Shown: positions 1 to 36,328, counted from the stretch's first letter. The stretch: 64,000 bases of DNA from Caldisericia bacterium (GCA_963674785.1 OY771555.1:943847-1007846); one strand, 5' to 3'. The notes: generated by a model from the sequence alone, not told the origin. Made by a program: numbers and translations.

Positions 1-612
1 ATTCTCCTTGAAAAAATTGCCAATAACACGAAGAGTGAATCATCAGTTGCTGCGATGGAATTTCTGAAATTTATTGCTCCAATGAATGCCACTTTTAAGG
101 ATGTTTCAAATTCATTTTCACCTGAGGAATTAAGGCTTATAAGAGATAGATTGATCGATTACATAATCTGGCGAGATGGTGGAGAAAAGGTTGAAAACCC
201 ATGCGTAAGAAGGGACGTAATTTTCAAAATCGGTTCAAAGATATTTAGATCAAACGGCGTTGAATCCGAGATGACAGTTGAACCTGTGATCATTGATGGG
301 TCAACATTTATTCCTGCAAGATATTTGGTTGAACCACTTGGTGGAACTGCATCCTGGGAAGGTTCAACTCGAACTGTAATCCTTGAAGCACTTGGACACA
401 AAGTTGAATTAGTGATAGATAAGGCTGATGCAAAAAGTGATGGCGAAAATGTCACCTTGTCAAAGCCACCAACAATAGTAAATGGAAGAACGCTTATCCC
501 TTTCAGAGCAGCAAGCACATTACTTGGCGCAGAGGTTTCATGGAATGCACAAACAAGAGAGGCAATCTGTGATTTTGACCTCGGAAAAAGACTTTTGATG
601 GAGATTGAATGA
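1..612 (+). CDS. Secreted/cell-surface protein, 5'-partial, with two copper amine oxidase N-terminal-like (CAO-N) repeat domains
   Basis: The frame is open back to position 1. Two repeats match the CAO-N type (DGSTFIPARYLVEPLGGTASWEG and NGRTLIPFRAASTLLGAEVSWNA). The stop overlaps the next start as ATGA. Confidence 0.55.
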   Translation: MLLEKIANNTKSESSVAAMEFLKFIAPMNATFKDVSNSFSPEELRLIRDRLIDYIIWRDGGEKVENPCVRRDVIFKIGSKIFRSNGVESEMTVEPVIIDGSTFIPARYLVEPLGGTASWEGSTRTVILEALGHKVELVIDKADAKSDGENVTLSKPPTIVNGRTLIPFRAASTLLGAEVSWNAQTREAICDFDLGKRLLMEIE

Positions 613-3600
613 AGCAGTTGATAGATGCTGTTTCAGATATAGACACCAATTTATCCAGGTATAAATATTCCAAGAAATTAATCGAAAAACTTTCTGATTA
701 TTTGCATTTTCCTTCGGCAATGCTTATCGATTCAGAGGGTGATTCAAATATTGTTGCGGCACACAATATGACTGAGACTCAAAGCAAGGGAATCCTTGAC
801 TTGATTTCAAGATCAGGAATATCCTCTATGGTTGCGCACATCAATGAGACTCTTCCTCCACCATGGGGTGATATTTCTAAGTTTCATTTCAGATCTCTCA
901 TATCTATACCACTTAAATATAATAAGAATAGAGTTGGATATATTGTACTTCTCTCCCCAAAAAAACATGAGATATCAGAAGAAGATTTTGGTTATCTGAA
1001 TACAATCTCCAGGATTGTATCCAATGGATATTCTGTTAATAAACTAAACTCGTCAGGTTTTCGAGGGGAGTGTTTTGCAACTATTGATAAAACTTTCCTG
1101 GATCAACTGAAGAGTGGTTTTTTGTCATATGATGCTGGTGGGAATATTGAATATATCAATCCGACACTTGTGGCGATGCTCGGGTCTCCTAACCCCGAAG
1201 AATCCAAAAAAATAAATTTGTTTACATTCCAGGGTTTGGTGGATGCTGGTTTATCTGAATCTTTTAAACGAGCTGTGAAAACTGGAAATAAAGTTTTTTC
1301 AACGCATACATACGTTTCAAAGTGGGGCGTTGAGAGCTATTTTCATCTGAATATCAACCCTGTAAAGGATGAAAACGGTCAGATTGTAGGTGCTCATGCC
1401 TATGTACATGATATTACCGATAAGGTAAAAACAAATTCTCTATTGACGGCGATAAATCGGACAAAAAAAGACCTTTTTGGGAAAAGAAATCTGAGTCTTG
1501 CGGTAAAACAAGTTTCAAAAGAGATTTTTGAGTTCATGGATGTTGATGATATGTTGATCTGTGAATTTGTTTTAGGGATGGATTATGGTGTTTGCAAGAT
1601 AAAGTCTGAAATATCTAAAAAAGACCTGCCCAAACTAACAACAAAACAAACTATCGATACCCATGAGATTGGTATTGATGAGCAGAGACTTGAACAGCTT
1701 ATTGCAGGTGAATCGATAACAATTGATTTTTCAAAAGAATATGAAACAACATCAATCAGGTCAGATTTTACACAGCTTCATGTGACACCAATCGGTTCAC
1801 AAAATGAGCTTTTTGGGCTTATTGTGCTTTTCCAAAGAACTGGCAGAAGGATTTGGTCACAAGAGATTTCAATGCTAATGAGTGTTTATTCTAACTATCT
1901 ACTCGCTGCGATAACTCAGCAAAAAGATTTGCAGAAACTTGAAACAAAGGTGATTCAAAAAGCTGAGGCCACAGCTTTGGATAATTACCAGTTGCTTATT
2001 GAGACCTCACCCTTTTCGATTATTTTCTTTTCAGAGTCGGGAAAGATTAATGAGATAAATCACGTCGGACATGAGCTTATTTCTGATTTTATTGAATCTG
2101 ATAAAACGGGTATCGATTATCTTCCAAAAAAATTTCTGAAGATTTTTTCAAAATACTTTGATTCATGTGATGACATCTCAAAAATTGTCTCCAGAACTGA
2201 AACCATCACTTTAAGTGATGGTGAAATTAAATACATACGGTTCTACTTGAGGTTGTTGCCTGGACCAGGGCATAAAAAATATCTTTTGATCATCGAAGAT
2301 ACGACGATGGTTGAAGAGTCATCAAGCCTTTTATCAGATGAGATGAAAAGGGTTGAGATTGCAAATAGGTCAAAAAGTGAATTTCTGGCAAACATGTCTC
2401 ATGAGATAAGAACACCATTGAATGCTCTACTTGGGTTCTCAGAGTTAATGCGAAATGAGAAGCTGAGCGGAAAAGCATCTGAGTATCTGGAGGCAATATA
2501 TACTGCAGGTGAAACACTTGACTATCTGACGTCTGATTTGTTAGACATTACAAGAATCGAAGCAGGTAAGTTGTCAGTTTATCCGGATGCAAATGATCTG
2601 AAATTGACAATAGATCAAGTTATTCAAATGCTTCGCTCGAAGATTGAGGAAAAGAACCTTGAGATTGTAAAGGTTTATCCTGACACTCCAAAAACCTTAC
2701 ACCTCTTTGATAAATCTAGAATCAAACAGGTTTTGATAAATCTGTTGGGTAATGCGATAAAGTTTACTGATAACGGTAGTATTGTCATAGGGTATAGTAT
2801 TAGGTTCTCAGATGATTTTGATGATGAGATAATAGTTTTTGTTGATGACTCTGGAATCGGAATCCCATCTGAGATGAGGGAATCTATTTTCTCTGTATTT
2901 ACTCAAATCAACAGTTCTGATACAAAAAGACATGCTGGGGCTGGACTTGGTCTTTCGATTGTCAAAGGAATTGTCGCCTCAATTGACGGGAAAATTCGTA
3001 TTGTTGAAAAGAACTCTCCAGGAACCAGGTTTGAAATTGACCTCACTCTTGAAAGAGTAAATGAAAATGATAATGGTGAGCTTATTGCAACAACCGAGGA
3101 TATATACGATAGAATCAGAAAACCTCTGGAAAATGCTTCATATAGGGTGAGGGTTGGAGGACTACAATCAGCAACAATTATTGTTATTGAGAGTGGAATC
3201 GATGAGATAACAAGGATGCTTACAATCAATCCATCTCTAAAAGTGGTTTCAATTGGAACAGAGGGCAAAGGTAATGGGTGGATTGGAATCAAAGAAAATT
3301 TCTCTTCCACAGAGCTGATTGATGCAATCAAAGAAGTTGCAAGCCAAGAGAAGAACGAACAAGGTGATGTTGGTATTCTCAATGGATTAAAAATCCTGGT
3401 TGTTGAGGATAATCCCTTGAATATCAAATTGATAACAGAAATTCTCAATAATTATGGTAGTGAGGTAACAGTCTCCAAAACAGGTGTTAGTGGTGTAAGC
3501 ACAGCATCAGAAGGAGCTTTCGATGTTTGTCTGATGGATATACAGATGCCTGACATCTCTGGACTCGATGCAACCATGCAGATTCGATACAACGAAGAAA

Positions 3601-4076
3601 AGTTCGGTAAAAGAAGATTGCCAATAATTGCCCTTACTGCATATGCGTCAGTCACAGATAGAGACAGATGCCTTACAGCAGGGATGGATGGGTATGTTTC
3701 AAAACCCATAAAAATCCCAGAGCTCATAAAAGCCGTTGAGGTTGCAATGGGTAAGAAAAAAACTTCAATCATTGAGAGACTATCTGAACAACTTCTGATT
3801 GCACCATTGAAACTGAAAGATATTCTTGAGGAATATGTCACAAAGAGTCTAGAGGGGATTATCGAGATAAAAGACTTTGTAGAGGCTGGCGAGTATAAGA
3901 AAGCCAGTGATGTTTGCCATAGACTCAAGGGAATGGCTTATTTTGAGCCACTTCTCTCAAAGATCATCAAACTCAGTGGGTCAATCAAGGCAAACAGCGA
4001 TGAAGATATTTCTGAGCAGTTGACTGACCTTGAATGTGAATTCAATCGAATCCAAGAAGAGCTTGAAAAAGTATAG
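609..4076 (+). CDS. Hybrid sensor histidine kinase/response regulator with PAS/GAF-like N-terminal region, HisKA, HATPase_c, receiver and C-terminal Hpt domain
   Basis: H-box SHEIRTPLNALLGFSELM; N/G boxes NAIKFTDNGSIVIGY, DSGIGIP and GAGLGLSIVKGIV; receiver ILVVEDNPLN...MDIQMPDISGLDA...ALTAYAS...YVSKP; Hpt motif HRLKGMAYF. Confidence 0.9.
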   Translation: MKQLIDAVSDIDTNLSRYKYSKKLIEKLSDYLHFPSAMLIDSEGDSNIVAAHNMTETQSKGILDLISRSGISSMVAHINETLPPPWGDISKFHFRSLISIPLKYNKNRVGYIVLLSPKKHEISEEDFGYLNTISRIVSNGYSVNKLNSSGFRGECFATIDKTFLDQLKSGFLSYDAGGNIEYINPTLVAMLGSPNPEESKKINLFTFQGLVDAGLSESFKRAVKTGNKVFSTHTYVSKWGVESYFHLNINPVKDENGQIVGAHAYVHDITDKVKTNSLLTAINRTKKDLFGKRNLSLAVKQVSKEIFEFMDVDDMLICEFVLGMDYGVCKIKSEISKKDLPKLTTKQTIDTHEIGIDEQRLEQLIAGESITIDFSKEYETTSIRSDFTQLHVTPIGSQNELFGLIVLFQRTGRRIWSQEISMLMSVYSNYLLAAITQQKDLQKLETKVIQKAEATALDNYQLLIETSPFSIIFFSESGKINEINHVGHELISDFIESDKTGIDYLPKKFLKIFSKYFDSCDDISKIVSRTETITLSDGEIKYIRFYLRLLPGPGHKKYLLIIEDTTMVEESSSLLSDEMKRVEIANRSKSEFLANMSHEIRTPLNALLGFSELMRNEKLSGKASEYLEAIYTAGETLDYLTSDLLDITRIEAGKLSVYPDANDLKLTIDQVIQMLRSKIEEKNLEIVKVYPDTPKTLHLFDKSRIKQVLINLLGNAIKFTDNGSIVIGYSIRFSDDFDDEIIVFVDDSGIGIPSEMRESIFSVFTQINSSDTKRHAGAGLGLSIVKGIVASIDGKIRIVEKNSPGTRFEIDLTLERVNENDNGELIATTEDIYDRIRKPLENASYRVRVGGLQSATIIVIESGIDEITRMLTINPSLKVVSIGTEGKGNGWIGIKENFSSTELIDAIKEVASQEKNEQGDVGILNGLKILVVEDNPLNIKLITEILNNYGSEVTVSKTGVSGVSTASEGAFDVCLMDIQMPDISGLDATMQIRYNEEKFGKRRLPIIALTAYASVTDRDRCLTAGMDGYVSKPIKIPELIKAVEVAMGKKKTSIIERLSEQLLIAPLKLKDILEEYVTKSLEGIIEIKDFVEAGEYKKASDVCHRLKGMAYFEPLLSKIIKLSGSIKANSDEDISEQLTDLECEFNRIQEELEKV

Positions 4077-4083
4077 TTTGCAG

Positions 4084-5448
4084 TTATCCTTCAATTACTG
4101 CATAATTCCTGTTTTCTATGAGCCCAACACGCTTTGAAATCTCAACATATTTTTTGAGTAGTTGTGCAATCTCAGATTTTGTTTTTATACAAAAAGGTTC
4201 TGAGATTGCACCTTTTTTCTCAAATGCTGTTGCTGCACATCCTCCTCCACATATAGGTACAATTGGACAATTTGAATCTATACATTTCTTCACTCGAATA
4301 AAACCACTTTCCAACCAATGTGTTTCACCATTATCTTTGTAAAAACCGTTTGAGTTCACATTTCCAACCGAATGACTTTCATTGCCAACAAAACTCCAGC
4401 ATCTACCTATGTTTCCATCAGGATCAATAACGTAGTTATGGAATGAATGAGAGCTACACGGGGAAGTTATAAAGGTTTGTAAATACCTTTTTTTGAGTTC
4501 AAAAATATCTTTTATGAAACCATATTTATCCAATTCTTCTAGCCATTTTGTCATAAAGCCATAGCGTTTTGGTTGTGGAATACAATTACATTCATATGAG
4601 GTGCTATCACCAGTCAATGACTGTATGAATGATGGGTGAATAGAAATTTTTTCATTTTCCAGAAGCCCGTGTTGCCTTAAATCTGAAATCACTTCAGGAA
4701 GTGAGTCAGCATTTTTTGTGTCGAGATTAATCCTCAGTGCAATATGAGTTTTAGGTATCGTTTCCAATGCAGCTTTGATCCCCTCTATTATCAAGTCATA
4801 TGAAGGTTTTCCACTTATGTATGTTCTTTGTTTGTCGTGGAATCTTCTCGAACCATGTAAAGTCACTTGAATGTTTTTTAGAGGAAGATGTTTAAAATAA
4901 TGTATATTACTTGTTAACAGTGATCCATTTGTAACCATCATCATATTTGTATTGGTGTTTGGATGATTTTTTGAGATGTATTCGAAAGTTTCTGTAAAAA
5001 AATGTGGTTGTAGTAAAGGTTCTCCACCATAACACCCAAGCAAAACCTCATAAATATCATATTTTGCTATTCGTGATGAAATAAACCGCTTTAGATTTTC
5101 AAATGTACCCGTTGTCATCACTTTAGAATTTCTATGTTCATAGCAATATGGACATGCAAAGTTGCAATTTAGTGTTGGAGCAAGAAGTATTCCCATTCTT
5201 TTTCCATCTTTTCCCCAGATATTTCTGAAGAAACCTAAAATCTTATCATCATTAGTGCTTTTATCATCAACCATAAAGCACGTTTTCAAAAGGTCTTTTG
5301 CAAGTGATGAGCTTTCTTCAATCAACTCAGGTTTTTCTATTATCCATGAGGGGAAGACTGCAATTGACCTTGTTATTGATGAAAGTGCGACATATTCATT
5401 CTCATTTATTTTTTCATAAAAAACATACTTAGAGAGGCGGAGACTCAT
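4084..5448 (-). CDS. Radical SAM enzyme with C-terminal SPASM/twitch domain (anSME/peptide-maturase family)
   Basis: CNFACPYCY is a CxxxCxxC radical SAM cluster motif. The C-terminal Cys-rich region CIDSNCPIVPICGGGC looks SPASM-like. It starts 14 nt after the last upstream small peptide gene and has an SD-like AAGGAAG. Confidence 0.85.
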   Translation of the reverse strand: MSLRLSKYVFYEKINENEYVALSSITRSIAVFPSWIIEKPELIEESSSLAKDLLKTCFMVDDKSTNDDKILGFFRNIWGKDGKRMGILLAPTLNCNFACPYCYEHRNSKVMTTGTFENLKRFISSRIAKYDIYEVLLGCYGGEPLLQPHFFTETFEYISKNHPNTNTNMMMVTNGSLLTSNIHYFKHLPLKNIQVTLHGSRRFHDKQRTYISGKPSYDLIIEGIKAALETIPKTHIALRINLDTKNADSLPEVISDLRQHGLLENEKISIHPSFIQSLTGDSTSYECNCIPQPKRYGFMTKWLEELDKYGFIKDIFELKKRYLQTFITSPCSSHSFHNYVIDPDGNIGRCWSFVGNESHSVGNVNSNGFYKDNGETHWLESGFIRVKKCIDSNCPIVPICGGGCAATAFEKKGAISEPFCIKTKSEIAQLLKKYVEISKRVGLIENRNYAVIEG

Positions 5449-5462
5449 TGATTCTTCCTTTT

Positions 5463-5666
5463 TTATTCAGGTTCAGAAATTGGACAGCAATATGTTGCCT
5501 GACAGTATATATCACATAGAGAAACGATGTTCATAATATTCGGATCAAATGTAACTTTATCTATCCAGCAGACTGATTTTGTTGGCACGATCTCCATTTT
5601 TGATAAATCAACTCTATTGCTGTCAATAACTATTTTTATTGAATTTTCATTATGTTGATAAGTCAT
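5463..5666 (-). CDS. Cys-rich small peptide (67 aa), paralog 1 of 4; candidate RiPP precursor
   Basis: Strong SD AGGAGAAAG lies 4 nt before the ATG. It shares a conserved N-terminal ~45 aa with its neighbours (ENSI..I.SN.V....M.E.PTK.VCWID...DPN.MNIV) and has a C-x3-C-x4-C tail (CDIYCQATYCC). Confidence 0.65.
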   Translation of the reverse strand: MTYQHNENSIKIVIDSNRVDLSKMEIVPTKSVCWIDKVTFDPNIMNIVSLCDIYCQATYCCPISEPE

Positions 5667-5677
5667 TAAACTTTCTC

Positions 5678-5881
5678 CTATGTTGCTTCATTGTAGCCTT
5701 CACAAAACGTTTGAGCACAAAGTGGCTGACAACATGTAACAATATTCATATATCTTGGATCGTAGTTATTTGTATCTATCCAACAGACTGTTTTTGTAGG
5801 TACTTCTTGCATAGTTTGTGGATTGACTAGATTTGAGTTAATTGTAATTGCCAAAGAATTCTCATCTTTTATATATCCCAT
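5678..5881 (-). CDS. Cys-rich small peptide (67 aa), paralog 2 of 4; candidate RiPP precursor
   Basis: SD AAGGAGG lies 4-5 nt before the ATG. Same conserved N-terminal region; tail CCQPLCAQTFC. Confidence 0.65.
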   Translation of the reverse strand: MGYIKDENSLAITINSNLVNPQTMQEVPTKTVCWIDTNNYDPRYMNIVTCCQPLCAQTFCEGYNEAT

Positions 5882-5890
5882 ATATCCTCC

Positions 5891-6100
5891 TTAACACATG
5901 TCATTGTAATTGCCAGAACAGTATGTTGAATGACAATATGTGGCAACGCAGGAAACAACCGGAAGATGCATATTCGCATCATAATTTGAGAAATCGAGCC
6001 AACATACTTTTAAAATCGGAATTTCTTCCATTGTGTTTGGGTTAAATTGGTTCGGATTGATTGTAACACGGATAGAATTTTCATTATGCTGATATGACAC
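5891..6100 (-). CDS. Cys-rich small peptide (69 aa), paralog 3 of 4; candidate RiPP precursor (GTG start)
   Basis: The start codon reads GTG (plus-strand CAC at 6098-6100) and is preceded by AGGAGGTG. An in-frame stop immediately upstream fixes the start. Tail CVATYCHSTYC. Confidence 0.6.
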   Translation of the reverse strand: MSYQHNENSIRVTINPNQFNPNTMEEIPILKVCWLDFSNYDANMHLPVVSCVATYCHSTYCSGNYNDMC

Positions 6101-6111
6101 TCATTCACCTC

Positions 6112-6318
6112 CTAACTGATGTTTCCCTTTGAGTCACAAAAACCAATGTTGCAGAAATTACTTTGACAGTATCCAACAACTTCCATAGTATTTTGATCAA
6201 AATTACTCTTATCTATCCAAACGACGATTTTATTGTTATCAATCTCCATGATTCCAGTATCAACTAATGTTGAGTTGATACCAATTCTTAAAGAGTCTTG
6301 ATCATGTATATACGGCAT
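6112..6318 (-). CDS. Cys-rich small peptide (68 aa), paralog 4 of 4; candidate RiPP precursor
   Basis: The six-frame ORF runs to 6387, but the internal Met (MPYIHDQDSL...) is preceded by GGAAGGAG at 7 nt spacing. Its length then matches the paralogs. Tail CQSNFCNIGFC. Confidence 0.6.
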   Translation of the reverse strand: MPYIHDQDSLRIGINSTLVDTGIMEIDNNKIVVWIDKSNFDQNTMEVVGYCQSNFCNIGFCDSKGNIS

Positions 6319-6575
6319 AAAGCACTCCTTCCATAAGTTTCCACCCCTCACTAATTCACAATATAGAGGGGCTGTGACAGTGTACAATTAAACTTCCTTA
6401 ACTGAAATAGCGACATTCTTAGCATTAATATTGCTAATATATCATTTCTTAATGTAAGTTTATATTATTTCCAGAATTATGAATGACTTCTGTTAGATAG
6501 GTATAAATTGATAAAATCCATGATTATGACAAAAACAAAGTTGACCAACCCCCATTTTTTTGATAAAAAATAAGC

Positions 6576-7646
6576 ATGAGAAAATTCTTAGTTCCAGTTT
6601 TACTTCTTGTTGTTTTTGTTGCTTGTTCATGTGGGAAACCAATGCCAAACCAAAAACATCTCGACTCGTTTTCGATGCTTCCTGATTTTGTTGTCACAAA
6701 GTCAAGTGAATCGGGAAACAGTGTGACACTGTATTCCTTTGATATGGAGGCAATCAGGGCAAACATCCAGATTGATAAAGAAAAACCACATACAGGTCAG
6801 GTCAATAATCTTGGAATAGCTGTAAGCAGAAACTATGAGAAAAATGCGGAACTTGGAATACTCGATCTTGAAAAAATGAAATATATAGCGACTTGCCCAT
6901 ATTGGAATGTCCAAGCATTTACACCTGCTGGTGGGCTTTTGGAAAAAATATCTGATGCCGGATTTATTGAAGAGATCATTGGTGATGGGTATCTTCTGAC
7001 GAAGGATTTTGAAGACAACATCACAGCCGAACTTGCGCCAGTTAACTGTTTTGTTGATGATACAATTGTTCAGGTCACAACAACAGCAAAACTTCAAAAA
7101 GAGGCAGTAACTTTGATGCTAATGGAGGAAGGCAACAGAGTTGATAAATTCCCCGCAATTTCTGAGATATTAAAATTGATGCCAGAATACCAAGCAGTTT
7201 GCCTTGTTTTCAGTTTTGATAGATACAGTGTGCTTGCTGAAGATGGTAGCATTCCTGGCTTCTTTGATGCTGCTGAGCAGTATGACATGATTCCGAGATT
7301 TGAAACATGGGGAAGACCTGATTCATACAGGATGGGTGCGGTCGGATCGTCCGTTGTTGATGGGGTAGAGCATTCAACAATTGTGCTTCTCTATGATTCT
7401 GAAAAGTCGGCGAAAGATGACAAACTGAATGTTGATAAAGCATTGCTTTCTGTTCCAAGCATGGTTGATGGAAATCCTTGGATGAAACACATGAACTTTG
7501 GGAAACCAATCGTCAAGGTTCAAAAAAATGCGATACTAATCGATTTTGATATTGAGAATCGAAAAAAAGAAGATGGACTCTTTTCAATGCAGATGTTGAA
7601 GTTTATGGATAAAACTGGAGATTGGGGGGTATTTTGGAGAAAATAA
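6576..7646 (+). CDS. Lipoprotein, function unknown
   Basis: Signal peptide ending in the lipobox FVACSCG. No recognisable catalytic motif. Confidence 0.6.
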   Translation: MRKFLVPVLLLVVFVACSCGKPMPNQKHLDSFSMLPDFVVTKSSESGNSVTLYSFDMEAIRANIQIDKEKPHTGQVNNLGIAVSRNYEKNAELGILDLEKMKYIATCPYWNVQAFTPAGGLLEKISDAGFIEEIIGDGYLLTKDFEDNITAELAPVNCFVDDTIVQVTTTAKLQKEAVTLMLMEEGNRVDKFPAISEILKLMPEYQAVCLVFSFDRYSVLAEDGSIPGFFDAAEQYDMIPRFETWGRPDSYRMGAVGSSVVDGVEHSTIVLLYDSEKSAKDDKLNVDKALLSVPSMVDGNPWMKHMNFGKPIVKVQKNAILIDFDIENRKKEDGLFSMQMLKFMDKTGDWGVFWRK

Positions 7647-8866
7647 CAAAGTCAATTCTTGCTCTTGTACTTGTTTGTTTGCTTAGTGTTTCCTGTGGCG
7701 GGGACGGAGTAGACGAAGTTGTCAAGATTTCTGAGCCAAATCCGACAAACCCAATACAGCAGGCTTTATCAAAAATGCCTGTTTCAATCATGAATCTTCC
7801 TGGAAGAGATCTCAAAATGAAAGCCTTTATCTTCAACAATATCGAATTAACCGTAAGGAGTAGAAACCTTGCAAATTATATGTTGGTGAATGAAAACGAG
7901 CAGATTTCATGGCTTTTTAAGATGGGTCATAATGTCACGTCGTCAATGAATTCAGTTATCGATTTTGGCAAATGGCATCATACAGATTTTATGAATCAAA
8001 CAACCTGGAAGATGAATATCTTTGACTACACAAGAGACCATGAGGTTGTTTTCTCAAAATCTGATAAAGAAGAATTCCTCACCTGGATGCTCAGACACAA
8101 TTTTGAAGTATACAAATCTGAGCCAGCATTGACCCTGAAACCAGGTAGTGTTTATCATAGGGATGCTTATGTTTTTGGTGCCGGTATTGTTCAGGGTGAA
8201 GATGGGGCAACATTCATTTGTCGTGAGCTTCCAACAGATGGTACAGTTGATGATGCGTTGGCAATTTATGAAGGTACGATGGGTTCCCTTCTTTCTGATC
8301 CAGAGATTTATGAAATTTCATCAAGGATTCCAGAGGGTGCTTTCTCTTCAATGATCTGTAAACTTGATACATCATATGCAAAACACAATCAGGTCACAAC
8401 TGCCGATACAACAGGTTTTTCTGGTGTTCCTTTAACTGATGAACAGACCGTTTGGGTTTCAGTTTATGGAAGACCAAAGGAATTGACTTGGTTTTCAGCT
8501 TCACACATCACAAAAGATGGTCATCACGGACTTCTTTGGGAGTTCCAGTATGAAACACCTGAGGCAGCAGAGGCTGACTTGACTCCACTTACTGATGCAA
8601 TTACTGAGGCAAAGGGCAGATTCACAGAAAAGAATTGGTGGGATGAAGACCTTCATCTTGAATCCCCTGAGATTTCTGTTGAGGACAATATCATATCAAT
8701 CTGGTCAGAGTGGATAATCCCCAGGGATGAAAAAAAGAAGATTGAATCTGGTATCATGACCGACGAAGAGAAGGAAACTCTCTGGTTTGAATATGTCCGA
8801 AGCATCTTTGATCTGTTTGACAAATTCGAACGCCAGGATTACGGTCCACTTTGGCAGGGGTATTGA
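7622..8866 (+). CDS. Lipoprotein, function unknown (TTG start as read from sequence)
   Basis: Hydrophobic signal ending in LLSVSCGG. The start codon at 7622 reads TTG. It overlaps the upstream gene by 25 nt. Confidence 0.5.
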   Translation: MGGILEKITKSILALVLVCLLSVSCGGDGVDEVVKISEPNPTNPIQQALSKMPVSIMNLPGRDLKMKAFIFNNIELTVRSRNLANYMLVNENEQISWLFKMGHNVTSSMNSVIDFGKWHHTDFMNQTTWKMNIFDYTRDHEVVFSKSDKEEFLTWMLRHNFEVYKSEPALTLKPGSVYHRDAYVFGAGIVQGEDGATFICRELPTDGTVDDALAIYEGTMGSLLSDPEIYEISSRIPEGAFSSMICKLDTSYAKHNQVTTADTTGFSGVPLTDEQTVWVSVYGRPKELTWFSASHITKDGHHGLLWEFQYETPEAAEADLTPLTDAITEAKGRFTEKNWWDEDLHLESPEISVEDNIISIWSEWIIPRDEKKKIESGIMTDEEKETLWFEYVRSIFDLFDKFERQDYGPLWQGY

Positions 8867-13481: not shown

Positions 13482-16481
13482 TTATGGCTGGCTGATTGTG
13501 ATTGTTGCAGATCGGGTCAATGAATCCCAACCAACCTCTGCTCCCAGCGCCTCTGTTACGAATCGGAGTGGAACATATGTTCTTCCCTCTCGAATCATCG
13601 GACCTGCGTCAAGTTCAACCATCTTGCCATCGACGTCTGCAATCTTAGACCCAATTGTGAGAATTATGATTTTTCCACCCATGATGTATGAAACGGTTTC
13701 AACTCCACCATCCTCTCCAGTCGTGTATCCAACCTCGGCACCAATTGATTCACCCAGAAATCTGAAAGGAACCATTGAGCGACCAGCAGAGCTTACAAAT
13801 GGAGTTCCCTTGCAATCCATCTCGATTCCATTGACTTTTGCTGTTGCTTTACCGATTGTAAAGACTACAACTGTTTTTTCTGGTCTGAGGTCAGCTTTTA
13901 CTGTTAAACTCTTGCCTTTCTCACCATCACGTTCGGGATAGACCTCATATTTATTCAACCCATTTCGAACAAACTCGGAGTCGATATAATAGGTATCTTT
14001 TACTTTTGCAATCTCAACACCATTTCTCAAAATGATGTAATGTGTTCCTTCTTGTTTTCCTTGCCAATAGAGCATGATTGAGTTTTCGGCGACATCTGTT
14101 TTTAGTTCAGTTATTTCAACTATCGGTGGTGCAAGATTAACAACAATTTGGGTTGCTTCGCTTTCCACTCCTCCTATTTTTGCTGTGATACTGTATGCCA
14201 ATTTTTGTTTTGGGGCTGAGTTATCTTTGTAGTATTTTTCAGTCGTTTCCTCTAAAAATTCATCATTTCTGCTAATTTCATATGTAGCATTATCATCATG
14301 ATCCCAGATGAGCATCACAGAATCCCCAATCATCTCATATCTGAGATTGGTTACAGGGTTTACCTTGTCTGGTTTGTTTTCAAAGATCACAAACGCCTCA
14401 GGACCGATTTCATCACCATTAAGTGGAAATACCTTATAAATGAGTTGTGTCCTTGGTGGATTTTCGTGGGTATATGTTTTTTCAGATGTCTTGCCAGTTT
14501 CTTCCCCATTGCACTCAATCTTGAATTCAACATCCTGCTCAGATTCCCAAGTAAGAATTATGTCACCGTCTTTTTTCTCTGCCTTCAAGTTTGTAACAGC
14601 CTTGAGTTTGAGTGGGATTGTGATGCTTACAGGATCGCTCATATCCGAATAAAGTTGATCTTTTGCAATTGCGACAACTGCGTAGTTATATGTTTTCCCC
14701 GGTTCAACATCAGAGTCCTTCAGATTTGTTTCCTTTACCATTGATTTATTCATCTCGGTATTTGGGAGAGGGGTATCCTGACCAATGCTTTTAAAGACAT
14801 TGTAGCCAACAGTTTCAGCACCTTCTTCGGATTTTTTCCAGTTGAGTTCAACATGGTCATAAACCCAAACGGCAGTCAAATCTGTTGGTGGATTTGGTGG
14901 TTCAGGCTGAGGTTCTTCTGGTTCCTCCTCTGTCACGGTTATGTTTGCAGTTACAAACCCAAGTGTTCTGTGTCCGTATTCTCCGTCCATGATAAAGATT
15001 TCCAGTTGACCTGAGTAATTTCCTGGTCTGTTGTTTCCTGCTTTTATTTTCACTCTGATTGTTGTTTCTTCCCCTGCAGGGAGAGGCAACACTTCAACTG
15101 TTGGTTCCATAAGGGATCCGCCGTCAAAGAGAAGCTCAAGGTCAACCTTACCTTCATTGCTTAGTCTGACCTGTCTTGTGGTTTCACCTCTCCATGGGAT
15201 GCTCACGTTGAAACTTTTGTCTTTGATGAGAAGCTTTGGTTCCTGATCTTTCGGCCTTGGTTGTTTTCCATAACAAAAAACCGTTCTGGTTCGATATTTT
15301 TCGTTGCTTCCAAACTCGACAAACATTCGTTTCCAAGCAACTACCGGTTGATATACATACTCAGCCTCTTCACCAAAAAGAACCTTGTCGATTATCTCAC
15401 CAGTATCGGGTGAAACGATGTATACACCAGCAATTTCAGCATCTGAACTGGCAACTGGAACAAGCAATTTATCATCCATCACAGTTAAGGCATCAGTGAC
15501 CTTTCCAGGCATATCTACATCCCAGATGATGTCACCATTTATCTTGAATCTGACAAGGCGCCCTCTGTCATTTCCAATCACAAGGCTGTCCCCATAAACA
15601 GATGGCCCGTGGAAACACCATGAACCTACATCAATTATCTCTTCAGAGCTTGCACCAGCTGGTTTTGGTAATGCGATAATCTCACCACCTGCAGCTGTAT
15701 AGATCATGTATTTATCAAAAGCAACGGTCGGTGCCCAGAATTGAGTTGAGATTTCATATGATTCTTTGATTCCACCATATCCTTCTGCAAGAAGTTTCAG
15801 ATCATAGTGACCAGCCATCCCGACCGTGCTTGCAACATCATTTACACCGGGGGCTGCAACTACTGCTCTTTCATGTCCGATTCTCCAGCCTGATTTTGGG
15901 GTGTCGAGTCTTACTCTATGTACCGCACCTGTTTGTGAGTAGGAGGAAAAATATCCGTAGATTTCTTCGTTTTTTAGGAGTGCTGCAACAGAAGACATGT
16001 GGCTGTCCCCGCTTGATGCGTACCATACAATCTCACCTGTTGCCATGGATAGAGCAAGATATCTTGATTGAAGGGGTACTATGACAGTATCGCCAAGGAT
16101 CGTGCAAGATTCTGTGCAAGCCTCAGAAAGTTCAAGACTCCACATCTGACTTCCAGAGATAACATCGATACATCTGACATAATATGTATCACCGATGACC
16201 ATCATTCCGTTTCCGATGACAGGATTTCTGTTCCATCCCCTGTTGGTTTTCAGTTTCAGCTCCCAGGCGACATCATGATAGGTTTCGTAGTCCCAGGTAT
16301 CAAAGGAATTTGAGGTGTGAGCGGCATTGCAGGCGTACTGTGGCCATGGTTTGGGGATATTCTCTTCACCAAATATTATCTCATCATCGGCAGAAACTGG
16401 GTTTAAAAACCCGCCTATGGCAAGGAACAGAACAAGAGCAATTCTAACTAAAGATTTCATTAGCTCCTCCTTTATCATCAA
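13482..16481 (-). CDS. Large secreted cell-surface protein: beta-propeller-like region, Fn3-like repeats, and two C-terminal CAO-N-like domains
   Basis: N-terminal signal peptide. Fn3-like W..P...Y segments. C-terminal MVPFRFLGESIGAEVGY and TYVPLRFVTEALGAEVGWD are CAO-N type. Confidence 0.75.
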   Translation of the reverse strand: MMIKEELMKSLVRIALVLFLAIGGFLNPVSADDEIIFGEENIPKPWPQYACNAAHTSNSFDTWDYETYHDVAWELKLKTNRGWNRNPVIGNGMMVIGDTYYVRCIDVISGSQMWSLELSEACTESCTILGDTVIVPLQSRYLALSMATGEIVWYASSGDSHMSSVAALLKNEEIYGYFSSYSQTGAVHRVRLDTPKSGWRIGHERAVVAAPGVNDVASTVGMAGHYDLKLLAEGYGGIKESYEISTQFWAPTVAFDKYMIYTAAGGEIIALPKPAGASSEEIIDVGSWCFHGPSVYGDSLVIGNDRGRLVRFKINGDIIWDVDMPGKVTDALTVMDDKLLVPVASSDAEIAGVYIVSPDTGEIIDKVLFGEEAEYVYQPVVAWKRMFVEFGSNEKYRTRTVFCYGKQPRPKDQEPKLLIKDKSFNVSIPWRGETTRQVRLSNEGKVDLELLFDGGSLMEPTVEVLPLPAGEETTIRVKIKAGNNRPGNYSGQLEIFIMDGEYGHRTLGFVTANITVTEEEPEEPQPEPPNPPTDLTAVWVYDHVELNWKKSEEGAETVGYNVFKSIGQDTPLPNTEMNKSMVKETNLKDSDVEPGKTYNYAVVAIAKDQLYSDMSDPVSITIPLKLKAVTNLKAEKKDGDIILTWESEQDVEFKIECNGEETGKTSEKTYTHENPPRTQLIYKVFPLNGDEIGPEAFVIFENKPDKVNPVTNLRYEMIGDSVMLIWDHDDNATYEISRNDEFLEETTEKYYKDNSAPKQKLAYSITAKIGGVESEATQIVVNLAPPIVEITELKTDVAENSIMLYWQGKQEGTHYIILRNGVEIAKVKDTYYIDSEFVRNGLNKYEVYPERDGEKGKSLTVKADLRPEKTVVVFTIGKATAKVNGIEMDCKGTPFVSSAGRSMVPFRFLGESIGAEVGYTTGEDGGVETVSYIMGGKIIILTIGSKIADVDGKMVELDAGPMIREGRTYVPLRFVTEALGAEVGWDSLTRSATITISQP

Positions 16482-21322: not shown

Positions 21323-21955
21323 TTACTTTGATTGGTAATCACAAAATTCAACAATCTTGCAAATATCACAATTTGGTCTTATAGGTTTACATACTTCTTG
21401 ACCAAGTCTGACAAGCAGTTCATTAGAAATAATCCAGAGGTCTTTAGGGAGAAGCTCCATCAAAGCCTTCTCTGTCTGATCGGGTGTTTTTGTGTTTACC
21501 CATCCAACTCGATTTGAAATTCTATGGACGTGTGAGTCAACAGTGATTCCTGGGATTCCGTACCCAAGGGTCAAGACCAGATTGGCTATCTTCCTGCCAA
21601 TCCCTTTGAGACTTGTTAAGTCCTTCATATTATCCGGTGTTTTGCCGTTGAATCTGCTACAAATTTCTGATGCAAGGTTTACGAGTGTTTCACCTTTTGT
21701 TTTATAAAATCCTGCAGGATAAATGATTTTTGCAACATCTTCCGGGTCGGCTTCAGAAAGCTCAGAAGTGGATTTCCACTTTTCAAAAAGCCTTATTGTT
21801 GCGGGATATGTTACCTCGTCTTTTGTTCGGGCTGAAATCACTCCAGAAACCAGAATCCTGAATGGGTCATGCTTATTGAGCCTCTGAAAATCCATGCCGT
21901 CCCGATCTTTTGCAAGGGTTAGGATTGCCTTCTCGGCATTAGTTTTTTGAGACAT
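21323..21955 (-). CDS. nth: Endonuclease III (HhH-GPD DNA glycosylase with 4Fe-4S cluster)
   Basis: HhH-GPD block LKGIGRKIANLVL. C-terminal C-x6-C-x2-C-x5-C (CKPIRPNCDICKIVEFC). The alternative longer start is at 21994. Confidence 0.85.
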   Translation of the reverse strand: MSQKTNAEKAILTLAKDRDGMDFQRLNKHDPFRILVSGVISARTKDEVTYPATIRLFEKWKSTSELSEADPEDVAKIIYPAGFYKTKGETLVNLASEICSRFNGKTPDNMKDLTSLKGIGRKIANLVLTLGYGIPGITVDSHVHRISNRVGWVNTKTPDQTEKALMELLPKDLWIISNELLVRLGQEVCKPIRPNCDICKIVEFCDYQSK

Positions 21956-23321
21956 ATAAAACAGCTTCTGCCAAATCTTCGTCTTGATGATCAAAAACTG
22001 TCCTCACGTCAAGAATTACTTTGTCATCAATGATGTGACCGATTACTGGAGTGTCTGCATTTCTTAATTTTGCAAGCATTGTTTGAGCAGAACCCTCAGG
22101 TGTGAGTTCTATTGCCCATGATTCAAAGTCGATATCTGGAAGTGAGCCTCCACCCATCTGTCCAGTGACTGGAATAACTTTTGGTGAGAACTTCTTAGTT
22201 TTAGATACTATCATTGAGTAAAGTTTATCAGCATGTAGTTTTAGTTCATCTGTTTCAATTGTTATCATTCTCATGACAGGATTTCTTTTTATGACTTCTG
22301 AGTCAGGAAGTAACCATAGTCTGAGAGTTTCTTCAATCATGCAGATGTGTGCTTTTGATAATCTATATGATCTCATGAGCGGATGTTTACCAATCCTGCT
22401 GAGATATTCCTCTCGACCGATAATGAATCCAGCTTGAGTTCCGCCAAGAAGTTTGTCCCCAGAAAAAAGCACAATGTCTGCACCTTTTTCAAGTGACTCT
22501 CTGCAGTTCGGCTCTTCTCTGAAATATTTGTGAGAGAGTGGTTTAAGAAGCCCTGAGCCAATATCATGTGCAAAAGGAGTACTATGTCTTTTTGCAAGTT
22601 CTGCTAATTCATCTTCTGCTGGGACTGATGAAAAACCCCGGATTGCATAGTTTGAGGGATGAATTTTGAGGATTAACGCGGTGTTTTCATTTATTGCTTC
22701 CTCGTAGTCTCTCAGGTGAGTTCTATTTGTTGTTCCAACCTCACGAAGGATTGCACCTGATTGTCTCATGATATCGGGGATTCTAAATGATCCACCCAGT
22801 TCGATGAGTTCTCCTCTTGAAACAATTACTTCACGACCTTCAGCGAGAACTTTCAACATTAGAAGGACTCCTGCAGCATTGTTGTTTACAAGAACGCCAG
22901 CCTCTGCACCTGTTACGAGTTTGATTAGCTCCTTAACGTGTGAACCACGTTTGCCACGTTTTCCTGTTTCAAGGTCAAATTCGAGATTGCTGTAGTTGCA
23001 GGAGATTTGCTGGAGTCTGAGATTTTCTGCCATTGGAGCTCTTCCAAGGTTTGTGTGAAGAACAATTCCGGTTGCATTTATGATTGGTTTAAGTGAACTT
23101 TTCTTTAGGATTCCGAGATTTTTATCGAGAGCATTCAAGATTGCTTTTGGGATATTTTCTTTTATCTTGCCAGAACCAATCTCTTTTCTGACCTCATCAA
23201 TTGATTTTTTGACAAGTCTTGAAACAATTTCTGGATTGAATCTCTCAAATTCTCTTTTGAAATCCGGATCGTCAATTATTGAAGAAATCTGTGGAATTTC
23301 TTTAAAAAGCTCGTTACTCAT
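21939..23321 (-). CDS. selA: L-seryl-tRNA(Sec) selenium transferase (selenocysteine synthase)
   Basis: Long colinear match to the SelA core (NLEFDLETGKRG...GAEA..VNNNAA.VLLML...SRGELIE.GG.FRIPD.MRQ.G..L.EVGTTNRTH). Start taken at MSNELF, with GGAGG 8 nt upstream. Confidence 0.9.
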   Translation of the reverse strand: MSNELFKEIPQISSIIDDPDFKREFERFNPEIVSRLVKKSIDEVRKEIGSGKIKENIPKAILNALDKNLGILKKSSLKPIINATGIVLHTNLGRAPMAENLRLQQISCNYSNLEFDLETGKRGKRGSHVKELIKLVTGAEAGVLVNNNAAGVLLMLKVLAEGREVIVSRGELIELGGSFRIPDIMRQSGAILREVGTTNRTHLRDYEEAINENTALILKIHPSNYAIRGFSSVPAEDELAELAKRHSTPFAHDIGSGLLKPLSHKYFREEPNCRESLEKGADIVLFSGDKLLGGTQAGFIIGREEYLSRIGKHPLMRSYRLSKAHICMIEETLRLWLLPDSEVIKRNPVMRMITIETDELKLHADKLYSMIVSKTKKFSPKVIPVTGQMGGGSLPDIDFESWAIELTPEGSAQTMLAKLRNADTPVIGHIIDDKVILDVRTVFDHQDEDLAEAVLYVSKN

Positions 23322-23452
23322 AAACCCAACCTCCAATCACCTATGATATTAAAAGGATAATCATGAAATGACAAGATTTGCATTTTTAGATGACTTTTTT
23401 CTACCAACTCTCGTATAAGTTGAAAAGGAAAAACTGGAAAGGAGAAGTTGCC

Positions 23453-28603: not shown

Positions 28604-29536
28604 TTAGTTATTTTTTATTTTCGATATTAACTTGTCTACAAGCAATGGATCATCTGACATTAAGGCTACAATATTTGATAAGCTCAGACAAAATTCTTTG
28701 ACCTGATTCTTATTGACATTATGCCATATTGGAAGAATAAGATTTTCATCACTATCAATATTTTTTGCGAAAATTGATTCGAATTCTGCTTCTCCCCAGC
28801 CTTTGTTGTTGAGGAAATTTGGTGAAAGAACCAAAATACAATACTTGGTTTCTCTTAAGCCTTTTTCAATGCTTTTCCTTAGATTATCTCCAACTCCAAG
28901 CGAGAAGTCATCGTACCATACTGGGCAAAACCTCTGGGTTAGTTTTAATGCTAAATCGCTTACCAAGACCTCTTTGTCACGAGAGTCGTGAGATATAAAA
29001 GCAAGCGGACTTCGATCTTTTGTTGTTGCATCCAAGTAGTTTTTGTCTCTGATAACTGGGTATAAACCTGCCTTTTGGCCTAATTCTAAAAGAAAGTCTC
29101 TTTTGTTTTTTTCAATATATTTCTCAACATAGATGAACACTCTTTTGTTAAATTGGGTATCAGATAGTTTTTGATGATCACCAAATCCTTGATGGCCAGA
29201 AAGTACATCAAAACCACCATCGGGAGAGTTTAATTCCAGAGGCTTTTCTAGTCCAATCCCCTCTACTCTAATCTTTTTTCTTCTAGAAATATCATCTTTT
29301 CCCAAATCACATTTTTGCACATAATCTGTTTTGTATATTAGGTCGATGTACTCAGCATAGTGTGGGGTTTCGGGTATATATGACTTAACTAGTCTTGTAT
29401 TATTATTTATATCGAAACACACTTTTAAAATTGCTGAGGGCAAAGGATTTTTGTTGTTGTCATTGAAGTTGAGTATTAATCCTTGGGTAAAAAAATTGCT
29501 TAAATCTCTTTCAAACAAATCTTTAACAGTATTCAT
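28604..29536 (-). CDS. TIR-domain protein (unknown N-terminal domain plus C-terminal TIR)
   Basis: FISHDSRDKEV...VWYDDFSLGVGDNL...ILVLSPNFLNNKGWGEAEFE is a canonical bacterial TIR pattern. Confidence 0.75.
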   Translation of the reverse strand: MNTVKDLFERDLSNFFTQGLILNFNDNNKNPLPSAILKVCFDINNNTRLVKSYIPETPHYAEYIDLIYKTDYVQKCDLGKDDISRRKKIRVEGIGLEKPLELNSPDGGFDVLSGHQGFGDHQKLSDTQFNKRVFIYVEKYIEKNKRDFLLELGQKAGLYPVIRDKNYLDATTKDRSPLAFISHDSRDKEVLVSDLALKLTQRFCPVWYDDFSLGVGDNLRKSIEKGLRETKYCILVLSPNFLNNKGWGEAEFESIFAKNIDSDENLILPIWHNVNKNQVKEFCLSLSNIVALMSDDPLLVDKLISKIKNN

Positions 29537-29559
29537 GCTCCTCCAATATCAATCAAGTA

Positions 29560-30897
29560 TTACTCCCTAATCTTCCCCAGAAGTTTTGGAATATCTTGAT
29601 ATTCTTCCACCCACAAAACATTCAAACCCAGCTCATTAAAGTCCTGGGTTTCGAGGTTTTTGGAAATCTCAAAGACCTCTCCTGAAATGTCCGCGGAGTT
29701 TTTGTCTTTCATGATGAGATAATGTTTCTTTTCGTGGTTGATGTTTTTCCTGTTTGAAACATCAAGAAGTCTTCTGAGGTTTGGGTCTGTCAGACTGAGA
29801 CCAAGGAAAAGACAGGTGTTTTGGCTGTATTTGATGAGCTGAATGATGTTTGACCAGCTATAAACATCCATTGTTTTGTTGTGATATGAGTCCTCGGAAA
29901 AAACAAGTTCTGTATCTTCTGGAATCTCACCTGTTCGAGGAAGGTACCCGTGAACATGATAGATAGGGAGTTCATTCGGGTTGAAACGTACTCCATCATT
30001 GTAGATTGGTTTGAAATCAACCCTCAATTTTTGAAGCTCCTCCTCAATTAAGCCATCAAAATTGAAAGTGATTATTGAATCAAGTGAACAACCGTTTCTC
30101 CTGCTTGGTTTTGAGAGCATCGCAATCTCTCTGATGAGGTCACATGTGCCGTTACCACCCTTATATAGTGCAGCTCGAAGCTCCTCATTGAAAAAACTAC
30201 CGAAATGGTTTTTAAGACTTTTGCCAAGGATGATTGGGGATTGGTTGTAATAGCTCAGGAAATCAGAGGCTTTTATTGGATTTTCTATGTTTAGGGCAAG
30301 TTGAGAGATCATCCGGTCGAGAAGGTCTTCTATCAGGTTGTTCCAGGTGGGAATTCCTGCGCTAACAGAAACCCCAGCTCCACATACAAGCGACAAAGCA
30401 CCATCATGGAAGGCATCTTGAAGATTTTCAATATATAGGTCATTGATGTTGTCTGGTCTTTTGATGAGTATTTCAGGTGGTGGACTTGCTTGTTCTCCAC
30501 TTTCGAGTTTGCTTGCAAATTTGGCGAATGTTTCAAGCTGTTTATCAAAGTTTTCAGATAGGTCGATATAGACATTTGAAAACATCATCGGTGGAATCTC
30601 TGACATATCGATTTTATCAAACGTCAGAACATAAAGCTTCCTTGAATCAAATGTTCCGCCGAAATAATTGAGATATGTCAACCATACCTCTTTTGTGTTC
30701 ATGTGCATTGTCTCGGCACTCAGAACAAGAAGCACCATCTCTGCTTTTTCATAAACATCAAGAATCTCAGATGGTGTTTCCTCGTCTGGGTTTACATCAG
30801 AGACCTTAAAAACAGTATGCCCAAAGGCCTGGAGTTTTTCGGCTACTTGGTCAACCCTGGCTTCGTCCTTGTGACCGTATTCAATGAATATATTCAT
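29560..30897 (-). CDS. TIR-like N-terminal domain fused to a SIR2-like (SIR2_2 type) domain
   Basis: N-terminus IFIEYGHKDEARV...MVLLVLSAET is TIR-like. SIR2_2 blocks are LVCGAGVSVSAGIPTWNNL, ITFNFDGLIEE and HVHGY. Confidence 0.7.
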   Translation of the reverse strand: MNIFIEYGHKDEARVDQVAEKLQAFGHTVFKVSDVNPDEETPSEILDVYEKAEMVLLVLSAETMHMNTKEVWLTYLNYFGGTFDSRKLYVLTFDKIDMSEIPPMMFSNVYIDLSENFDKQLETFAKFASKLESGEQASPPPEILIKRPDNINDLYIENLQDAFHDGALSLVCGAGVSVSAGIPTWNNLIEDLLDRMISQLALNIENPIKASDFLSYYNQSPIILGKSLKNHFGSFFNEELRAALYKGGNGTCDLIREIAMLSKPSRRNGCSLDSIITFNFDGLIEEELQKLRVDFKPIYNDGVRFNPNELPIYHVHGYLPRTGEIPEDTELVFSEDSYHNKTMDVYSWSNIIQLIKYSQNTCLFLGLSLTDPNLRRLLDVSNRKNINHEKKHYLIMKDKNSADISGEVFEISKNLETQDFNELGLNVLWVEEYQDIPKLLGKIRE

Positions 30898-30910
30898 GTA
30901 TTCATTTTAG

Positions 30911-31762: not shown

Positions 31763-31765
31763 GTT

Positions 31766-32719: not shown

Positions 32720-32833
32720 AAAGCTCTCCTTATTTTTTTGTAATTGGGAGAAGAGTCTAATGATAAAATGTCAAAATGCAAGCGGAATGGGCTGGTTTAC
32801 AAATTCATATATTTTTATATACTTCTTCCTGGT

Positions 32834-36274: not shown

Positions 36275-36328
36275 TAAAAAACCAAGTCAGTTTACTTTTT
36301 TCTACATTTTCATATACTCTCACCTAGT

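Follow-up and report, generated by a model that had tools for sequence, protein, structure and literature searches.

What is made by a gene cluster in which four small cysteine-rich peptide genes stand directly before the gene for a radical S-adenosylmethionine (SAM) enzyme (rSAM)? The question is raised by a 64,000-nt stretch of DNA from a Caldisericia bacterium (GCA_963674785.1 OY771555.1:943847-1007846; hereafter the window), in which the initial annotation had recognised leader/core precursors beside an rSAM enzyme of the SPASM type. That recognition is supported by family matches, by an enzyme architecture like that of CteB and by strict co-occurrence of the two kinds of gene. The cassette is very probably of the RiPP type (ribosomally made peptides that are modified after translation), comprising four diverged precursors and a dedicated rSAM/SPASM maturase in one operon. 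By analogy with related maturases, thioether cross-linking would be the most likely chemistry, a choice that carries close to even confidence, and the combination of a RiPP pair with thioether chemistry is modestly favoured.

The ORF listing and the sequence place five close-packed genes between 4084 and 6318. Coordinates count from the first letter of the window, and the cassette genes are all on the minus strand.

6112-6318, minus strand: pepA, precursor peptide 1, 68 amino acids (aa), ATG start, Shine-Dalgarno (SD) sequence GGAAGGAG, 11 nt to pepB; translation divided into leader and core, MPYIHDQDSLRIGINSTLVDTGIMEIDNNKIVVWIDKSNFDQNTMEVVG / YCQSNFCNIGFCDSKGNIS
5891-6100, minus strand: pepB, precursor peptide 2, 69 aa, GTG start, SD GGAGGTG, 9 nt to pepC; core SCVATYCHSTYCSGNYNDMC
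5678-5881, minus strand: pepC, precursor peptide 3, 67 aa, ATG start, SD AGGAGGA, 11 nt to pepD; core TCCQPLCAQTFCEGYNEAT
5463-5666, minus strand: pepD, precursor peptide 4, 67 aa, ATG start, SD GGAGAAAG, 14 nt to the rSAM gene; core LCDIYCQATYCCPISEPE
4084-5448, minus strand: radical SAM/SPASM maturase, 454 aa, ATG start, SD AAGGAAG, translationally close-coupled to pepD

This layout agrees with what had been described for the locus: four paralogous open reading frames (ORFs) of 67-69 aa in tight tandem, with spacers of 11, 9 and 11 nt and an SD sequence before each, and 14 nt after them an rSAM of 454 aa carrying a CxxxCxxC motif and SPASM cysteines. The upper end had been set at 6387 and is revised here. 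The pepA frame stays open in the mechanical ORF up to a TTG at that position, which opens the same frame only, and the SD sequence, the homologues and the 68-aa public protein P0003, to which pepA is identical, support the ATG at 6318 as the predicted start. The family hidden Markov model (HMM) gives pepA 100.9 bits. The exact pepB protein, with its GTG start, is absent from the public protein collection in which pepA, pepC and pepD are present; public annotation probably missed pepB or gave it another start.

Among the four peptide genes, protein identity is 29-46% and DNA identity 56-65%, values that identify them as old paralogues and not as chance ORFs or recent copies. Their history can be followed on a 1-kb metagenome contig (L006) that carries three complete orthologues and the start of the rSAM gene, with the tail of a pepA orthologue (...CGDKGNLT, then stop) at its very edge.

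38-247 of L006: pepB orthologue
260-463 of L006: pepC orthologue
478-681 of L006: pepD orthologue

Since orthologues of all four genes occur on L006, the four-gene array is older than the split between the window and L006 lineages. Between the two arrays synonymous sites are saturated, with a proportion of synonymous differences (pS) of 0.65-0.83, while the nonsynonymous proportion (pN) is just 0.16-0.20; pepB and its orthologue share 74% aa identity at pN 0.17 and pS 0.81. Low pN beside saturated pS indicates purifying selection on real genes. The same comparison gives a pN of 0.25 for the core and 0.15 for the leader, the core cysteines nonetheless being retained.

Alignment of the whole family divides each precursor into three, namely an N-terminal motif (M-x-Y-x-H-[DN]), two tandem modules and a variable core. 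The module spans about 17 residues and follows h-x-h-x-h-[DN]-x3-h-[DN]-P-x-T-M-E-h-h; its two copies in L004 read IKVALDQSLINPNTMEL and RVVWIDAVNFDPNTMEF, and together with the N-terminal motif they form a leader of about 50 residues. Comparison of repeat 1 with repeat 2 by hhalign returns a probability of 95% and an E-value of 2.4e-8, so that the leader is an internal duplication. The leader had been called unusually long and conserved. Its length is not unusual; it is unusual as an internal duplication whose module also heads larger proteins. An AlphaFold2 (AF2) model of one precursor, with a predicted local distance difference test score (pLDDT) of 59, places strands at residues 9-14, 25-27, 32-36 and 47-52 and shows a disordered core. 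Read for beta propensity only, this beta-prone leader fits an extended leader that could donate a strand.

The core starts after a small residue and exists in two forms. The long form reads C-x3-[YF]-C-x2-T-[YF]-C and is usually followed by x-G-x-[YF], giving three C-x3-aromatic pentads, with the aromatic of the third Cys three to four residues downstream. In its short form the core reads C-x-C-P-N-Y-R-C-W, and this form occurs in L003 and in the Caldisericia loci, L007 among them. Only a C-x4-C pair, at x4 or x3 spacing, is common to every member. An earlier description of the tail as C-x3/4-C-x4-C, with an aromatic or small residue directly before each Cys, is borne out for the pattern and for Tyr/Phe before the second and third Cys, and breaks down at a Leu in pepC.

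Two larger proteins bear the same leader: P0130 (228 aa, L092 6001-6687) and P0133 (400 aa, L104 2375-3577). Both contain the complete leader including M-x-Y-x-H-N, then a second module pair and then G-D-x-Y-G beta-helix repeats, and both are without a Cys-rich tail or an rSAM neighbour at their loci. The bactofilin match of P0133 is weak (E 7e-4, below cutoff). P0133 comes from the same sample as L004, and a ribbon-helix-helix gene lies before that of P0130 and overlaps it. By analogy, the leader may derive from a free-standing protein module or share a function with one.

The enzyme belongs to a small clade, taken here as P0007-P0011 together with the rSAMs of L007, L019 and L087. In a collection of 5.8 billion proteins its four close relatives (P0008-P0011) share 34-41% identity at 280-351 bits, the next match scoring 164 bits. 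Two more members, at 36% identity, are found among the matches listed in the Caldisericota metagenome-assembled genomes (MAGs) L007 and L019, and L087 contributes one on a Logan contig. Each clade rSAM has 1-4 family peptides directly upstream, distributed as follows.

Window: four peptides
L006: three complete peptides and a truncated fourth
L087: three peptides
L001/L002, L004/L005, L103, L003 and L007/L019: one peptide each

Every peptide copy with downstream DNA available precedes a clade rSAM, and a complete peptide is never found without one. Ten further Caldisericia contigs carry the same peptide-rSAM pair, and the Caldisericia peptide is recorded in 124 blocks of the collection. When the window and all 104 loci are translated in six frames, the family HMM matches only beside clade rSAMs, the exception being the larger protein in L092; the outgroup rSAM loci, about 80 in number, yield no match. 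Searching 1.84 billion cluster representatives exhaustively by HMMER with a profile of seven sequences recovers six peptide clusters at E<1e-10, along with two larger proteins. A scan of JGI metagenomes with a peptide sub-alignment gave 563 pattern matches, 0 of them confirmed. A profile search with 15 distinct family peptides found no Pfam, NCBIfam or PDB match, only noise. The family is very rare and confined to poorly studied uncultured anaerobes, and its only named carriers are Caldisericota MAGs. The suggestion that the peptides might turn up in most genomes apart from an rSAM is contradicted by these loci, as the two are linked in every locus recovered.

Precursor number varies among close relatives. 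L087 carries at 504-1380 a run of three, for peptides of 66, 69 and 69 aa, whereas L001 (5683-5883) and L002 have the first only, beside a near-identical rSAM, which indicates that copy number shifts quickly within a lineage.

The genes flanking the pair elsewhere are variable, including asparaginase and SMC genes, an esterase, a glycosyltransferase together with an HMA protein, and a dCMP deaminase accompanied by a Fer4 protein. In none of the lineages recovered does a gene for a protease, an exporter or immunity recur beside the pair. Because all other neighbours change between lineages, the functional unit consists of the peptide or peptides and the enzyme only. This constancy also bears on whether the small ORFs are substrates at all. 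They could instead be independent Cys-rich proteins that bind metal or Fe-S clusters and share an operon with the rSAM; C-x4-C-x4-C could bind metal, and the leader-like module does exist in proteins that lack an rSAM partner. That explanation is very unlikely, as adjacency is strict in all lineages while other neighbours change, the enzyme has a predicted RRE-like peptide-binding domain, and every sister clade is likewise coupled to Cys-rich peptides.

The enzyme itself matches PF04055 (Radical_SAM) at 57.9 bits against a cutoff of 29.5 and the SPASM model TIGR04085 at 52.8 bits against 27. Its main elements are listed below; RRE stands for RiPP recognition element.

5143-5166, minus strand: C95-x3-C99-x2-C102, ligands of the SAM-binding [4Fe-4S] cluster, invariant in 64/64 aligned homologues
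4189-4458, minus strand: SPASM domain, residues 331-420, with a seven-Cys motif, defined by TIGR04085 and the alignment
4582-4584, minus strand: linker Cys289, upstream of the SPASM domain, conserved in 56/64
5209-5448, minus strand: RRE-like (winged-helix, PqqD-like) domain, residues ~1-80, assigned from structure

The SPASM pattern reads C331-x13-G345-x4-C350 ... C389-x4-C394-x5-C400-x3-C404 ... C420, and the first spacing within its Cys cluster is x4 where x2 is usual. C350, C389, C394, C400, C404 and C420 are invariant in 64/64 homologues, and C331 is present in 63/64. The AF2 model built on the 64-homologue alignment (pLDDT 91.2) consists of an N-terminal sheet with three helices, a partial TIM barrel and a SPASM domain. 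In the N-terminal region strands run at residues 3-5, 9-15, 18-23 and 28-33, followed by helices at 34-38, 48-55 and 67-80. The top solved structures in Foldseek are those of CteB (5why/5wgg), with full-length alignments and E-values from 1e-19 to 4e-18, and TigE, anSME, ChlB and SuiB come next; CteB is also the best PDB match by sequence (E 1.6e-17). Full-length alignment to the RRE-containing CteB, TigE and SuiB spans the N-terminal region, and residues 1-80 are accordingly modelled as a candidate leader-binding, RRE-like domain. The order RRE, rSAM and SPASM is one reported for RiPP maturases whose RRE beta-sheet is extended by the leader (PMC6231123). CteB is such a case, and there Aux I binds a substrate Cys (PMC6231123).

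Family assignment places the enzyme among maturases of Cys-rich peptides and at the same time outside each named family. The top NCBIfam scores are those of CefB (176.7 bits), TIGR04463 (165.9), Clo7bot (151.8) and geopeptide (149.5), followed by FlmE/OhkG (125) and PapB (114.3). All the leading families are maturases of Cys-rich peptides, and every score lies far under its own cutoff (340-600). CefB (NF038107) reaches 176.7 of the 600 bits needed, and 170-190 in other clade members. The Clo7bot maturase model TIGR04334 reaches 151.8 of 600, and the peptides have no match to TIGR04333 at E<=1 (cutoff 31). The corresponding values are 165.9 against 525 for TIGR04463, 149.5 against 400 for geopeptide (TIGR04280), 114.3 against 340 for PapB (NF047865), 88.5 against 425 for the SCIFF maturase (TIGR03974) and 46.2 against 720 for the sactisynthase RumMC (NF035951). 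Of the 71 NCBIfam families that match, the 25 best do not include AlbA, ThnB or Trn. By chemical definition, the Cys sulfur is bonded to C-beta or C-gamma of the acceptor residue in ranthipeptides and to C-alpha in sactipeptides. With scores far below every cutoff, the enzyme stands outside all named families, in accordance with the earlier view of a cluster outside the known families. The other clade members present the same HMM picture, their top family alternating between CefB and TIGR04463 at similarly low scores, which marks the clade as a separate, roughly equidistant branch of the radiation. The same alternation led to rejection of a special affinity to the 'Cys-every-fifth' family. A defence role as a viperin was considered as well and rejected, the PADLOC pVip model matching the generic rSAM core only (residues 93-198, 42.9 bits).

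These comparisons also bear on a change other than cross-linking, such as conversion of Cys to formylglycine in the manner of anSME, epimerisation in the manner of EpeE/YydG, or another outcome of hydrogen abstraction. Such a change is quite unlikely. Both anSME and EpeE appear among the structural matches, the anSME model TIGR03942 scores 83.1 bits, and the clade-specific substitutions D198H and N223G hint at an altered active site. Against this, TIGR03942 falls far short of its 349-bit cutoff and ranks under the peptide maturase models (PRK13745 reaches 48 of 484), the cores contain no C/S-x-P-x-R sulfatase motif, and EpeE-type enzymes are more distant, at E about 1e-8. The initial annotation had reserved the case of an enzyme clustering with anSME beside a sulfatase; that score and the lack of a nearby sulfatase speak against it.

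The substitutions just mentioned separate the clade from its outgroup.

4855-4857, minus strand: His198 codon, in a Q-[IV]-T-L-(D>H)-G motif after a beta strand

Position 198 is Asp in 59/59 outgroup sequences and His in 5/5 clade sequences, and the L007 and L087 enzymes likewise have His there. The Asp of the x-S/T-x-D-G strand is one that we take to be a SAM-ribose contact in MoaA-type enzymes. The clade further has G223 where 90% of the 59 outgroup sequences have Asn, and S282 where 58% of them have Cys.

The outgroup looks like a large, mostly unnamed radiation that includes Zixibacteria, Ignavibacteria, Acidobacteria, Saccharibacteria and Lachnospiraceae. Many of its SPASM maturases (25-31% identity) follow one to three short Cys-rich peptides, as at L010, L014, L015, L020, L021, L025, L042, L058, L060, L062, L065, L068, L071 and L072, where the peptides show N-terminal motifs such as MIYLIDP, MEWIxxP, MKWxK and MDYLVDP. 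Eight non-Clo7bot representatives were scanned, and none reaches an NCBIfam cutoff. Short outgroup leaders start M-x-[YWF]-[ILV]-[IVK]-[DKE]-P (MKYIIKP, MIYLIDP, MEWIIKP); the N-terminal motif of the window family resembles these starts in sequence, a likeness too short for statistics and to be taken as a lead only.

A mechanism can be proposed along these lines. The RRE-like N-terminal domain would bind the leader, probably by beta-strand addition, and the cluster held by C95, C99 and C102 would cleave SAM to a 5'-deoxyadenosyl radical, which would take hydrogen from one residue of the core. Assisted by the two SPASM clusters, the enzyme would then bond the sulfur of each core Cys to a carbon close by, and the likely outcome would be two or three small consecutive thioether rings. 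One possible ring would connect Cys(i) to the aromatic residue at i+4, comparable to the C-x3-D rings of freyrasin. In freyrasin, six Cys-to-Asp C-beta thioethers are formed in a tandem repeat (PMC8326336).

Several observations weigh against this proposal or against parts of it. The short cores (C-x-C-P-N-Y-R-C-W in L003 and L007) misfit a simple Cys(i)-aromatic(i+4) rule. As the nearest families are without a described product, the thioether proposal draws on the more distant PapB, CteB and QhpD: for CefB, TIGR04463, Clo7bot, geopeptide and FlmE/OhkG no product is described in the searchable literature, and the OhkA/FlmA study treats peptide arginases and not the rSAM (PMC12703449). The enzyme has no Pfam PqqD match, so its RRE assignment comes from structure. 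Since the leader module is also present in proteins with no rSAM nearby, the 'leader' may act beyond enzyme recognition. A sigma-70 consensus scan gave no minus-strand promoter in 6319-6575, and no operon terminator was found. Finally, the enzyme has eight conserved C-terminal Cys including C289, enough to ligate both auxiliary clusters fully. Fully ligated auxiliary clusters are present in anSME and SuiB, CteB has an open Aux I, and AlbA has seven C-terminal Cys (PMC6231123).

The last of these points leads to a different chemistry, in which the enzyme would cross-link the conserved aromatics by C-C or C-O bonds, as triceptide, streptide and darobactin enzymes do, and the Cys would serve disulfides, metal binding or substrate guidance. 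Aromatic cross-linking is unlikely. In its favour, the aromatic residue (Tyr/Phe; Trp where the core is short) equals the adjacent Cys in conservation, the eight Cys could suffice for full ligation of both auxiliary clusters, the state found in SuiB (PMC6231123), and SuiB is among the fold matches. The HMM scores, however, point the other way, with DynA at 85, YhhB at 63 and FxsB at 49.5 bits against 150-177 for the maturases of Cys-rich peptides. The sister families all pair with Cys-rich peptides that lack conserved aromatics, and in pepC a Leu replaces the aromatic before one Cys.

A bolder version of the thioether proposal would make the cassette a new RiPP class, in which a D>H SPASM enzyme joins Cys to the pentad aromatic, the leader is a duplicated module that also exists independently and is more than a throwaway recognition tag, and the leader-bearing product is kept in the cell. 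This is improbable. A literature search found no rSAM-made Cys-Tyr or Cys-Phe link in a RiPP.

The fate of the product would follow from the gene content. With no linked protease, exporter or immunity gene, processing and export would fall to machinery encoded elsewhere, or the product would stay intracellular and keep its leader, a fate also discussed for SCIFF peptides. The same absence, together with a pair that is stable and widespread chromosomally in Caldisericia, on many contigs and in many samples, would suit a modified peptide acting as an intracellular precursor of a redox cofactor, a metal-binding factor or a signal, comparable to PQQ and mycofactocin. An intracellular factor of this kind is nevertheless a poor candidate, because the accessory genes of cofactor pathways (PqqB/C/D, MftD/E/F) are absent and four diverged, faster-evolving cores in one genome fit diversified products better. 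SCIFF cassettes offer a comparison; their wide occurrence has been read as evidence against antibiotic function, and a part in quorum sensing is reported for their peptides (PMC8326336).

Comparison with known systems shows which parts of the cassette are familiar. A multi-precursor array before one SPASM maturase is already a known layout, for example in Clo7bot (TIGR04333/TIGR04334), where several tandem paralogous Cys-rich precursors directly precede one maturase. The Clo7bot loci used as positive controls behave as expected: the maturase of L031, a locus with five peptides, reaches 701 bits and that of L085, with four, 719, and an L031 peptide scores 44.2. The Clo7bot and window maturases are homologous over the full length, N-terminal domain included, and Clo7bot precursors start M-x-[YF]-[IL]... 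where those of the window family start M-x-Y-[IQ]-[HK]-[DN]. The cores differ, and Clo7bot leaders have about 10-15 residues, in contrast to the ~50 with a duplicated module here. The CefB family name implies a Cys at every fifth position, equivalent to the C-x4-C-x4-C spacing, a likeness by name and HMM score only; the scores stay far below the CefB and TIGR04463 cutoffs of 600 and 525, and no NCBIfam precursor model matches the 15 peptides.

Among characterised systems, PapB is the closest family by HMM (114 bits) and CteB the closest solved structure. Freyrasin has tandem short repeats with one Cys each linked four positions away (PMC8326336), which recalls the pentads of the window cores, and SCIFF likewise presents a peptide and maturase pair with no dedicated protease or exporter (PMC8326336). 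Unlike ranthipeptides, the cores here have no acceptor Asp/Thr and carry Tyr/Phe at i+4 instead, and the cassette has a longer, duplicated leader, an eighth Cys (C289) and D198H. For the leader a further parallel exists. According to Haft et al. 2010, NHLP and Nif11 leaders are reportedly long, conserved and homologous to a domain of non-RiPP proteins, as the long leader here recurs in the bactofilin-like P0130 and P0133. NCBIfam and Pfam reveal no sequence relationship to NHLP or Nif11, and the Gly-Gly motif, C39 peptidase and ABC exporter of those systems are missing.

The surroundings of the cassette in the window are as first described, with a convergent hybrid histidine kinase and two divergent lipoprotein genes.

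6319-6575, strand not assigned: AT-rich divergent intergenic region, presumed operon promoter, placed by position only
609-4076, convergent to the cassette: hybrid histidine kinase
6576-7646 and 7622-8866, divergent from the cassette: two ORFs with lipobox-like N-termini

Near the cassette, the ORFs scanned between 55 and 16481 include no gene for a sulfatase, a protease or an exporter. Regulation by the histidine kinase and a role of the lipoproteins as parts of the system were considered and rejected, no other locus having them adjacent. An Rfam search of the whole window gave no match tied to the operon and none in 6319-6575. The G+C content falls mildly to 33-34% across the cassette (window 4001-6500), against 36-41% in both flanks, and this low value is compatible with acquisition from elsewhere or with small-gene composition.

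Copper amine oxidase N-terminal 'stalk' domains (Cu_amine_oxidN1) end the proteins at 55-612, 13482-16481 and 50479-52965 and also adjoin the cassette in L003 and the Caldisericia loci; most likely the domain is a cell-surface feature typical of the lineage, with no relation to the cassette. Elsewhere in the window the following features were seen.

21939-23336: gene for SelA (selenocysteine synthase), closest homologues 55-73% identical and from metagenome proteins; homologues from named organisms, in many phyla, 44-47% identical
28604-39820: region resembling an anti-phage defence island
28604-29536: TIR-like protein resembling ThsB, matching PDC-S66
29560-30897: TIR and SIR2 protein resembling ThsA
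32744-36274 and 36329-39820: tandem proteins of ~1170 aa with SIR2, NB-ARC/STAND and TPR regions, best PADLOC match the candidate system PDC-S65 at 409-411 bits

The SelA gene and its distant homologues indicate that the window comes from a poorly sampled, selenocysteine-using lineage.

The general kind of system, a Cys-rich peptide with an rSAM/SPASM maturase, is well known and has many orphan families. Pairs of this kind have repeatedly given new bond chemistry, including sactionine, ranthionine, cyclophanes and cyclopropylglycine. A compendium lists about 15,000 RiPP rSAMs (PMC10288494). What is new is a precursor family absent from Pfam and NCBIfam, a leader built of a duplicated module, and enzyme substitutions specific to the clade. 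For annotation, the locus is a case of four small genes that are easily missed or mis-started. For experiment, it provides four natural substrates for one enzyme, a periodic core, a duplicated leader and a clade-specific residue change, which make it a good compact target for the discovery of enzyme chemistry. A thioether product would make the family one more of its kind and its maturase, small and possibly promiscuous, an addition to the tools for stapling peptides; a chemistry of the aromatics would be new.

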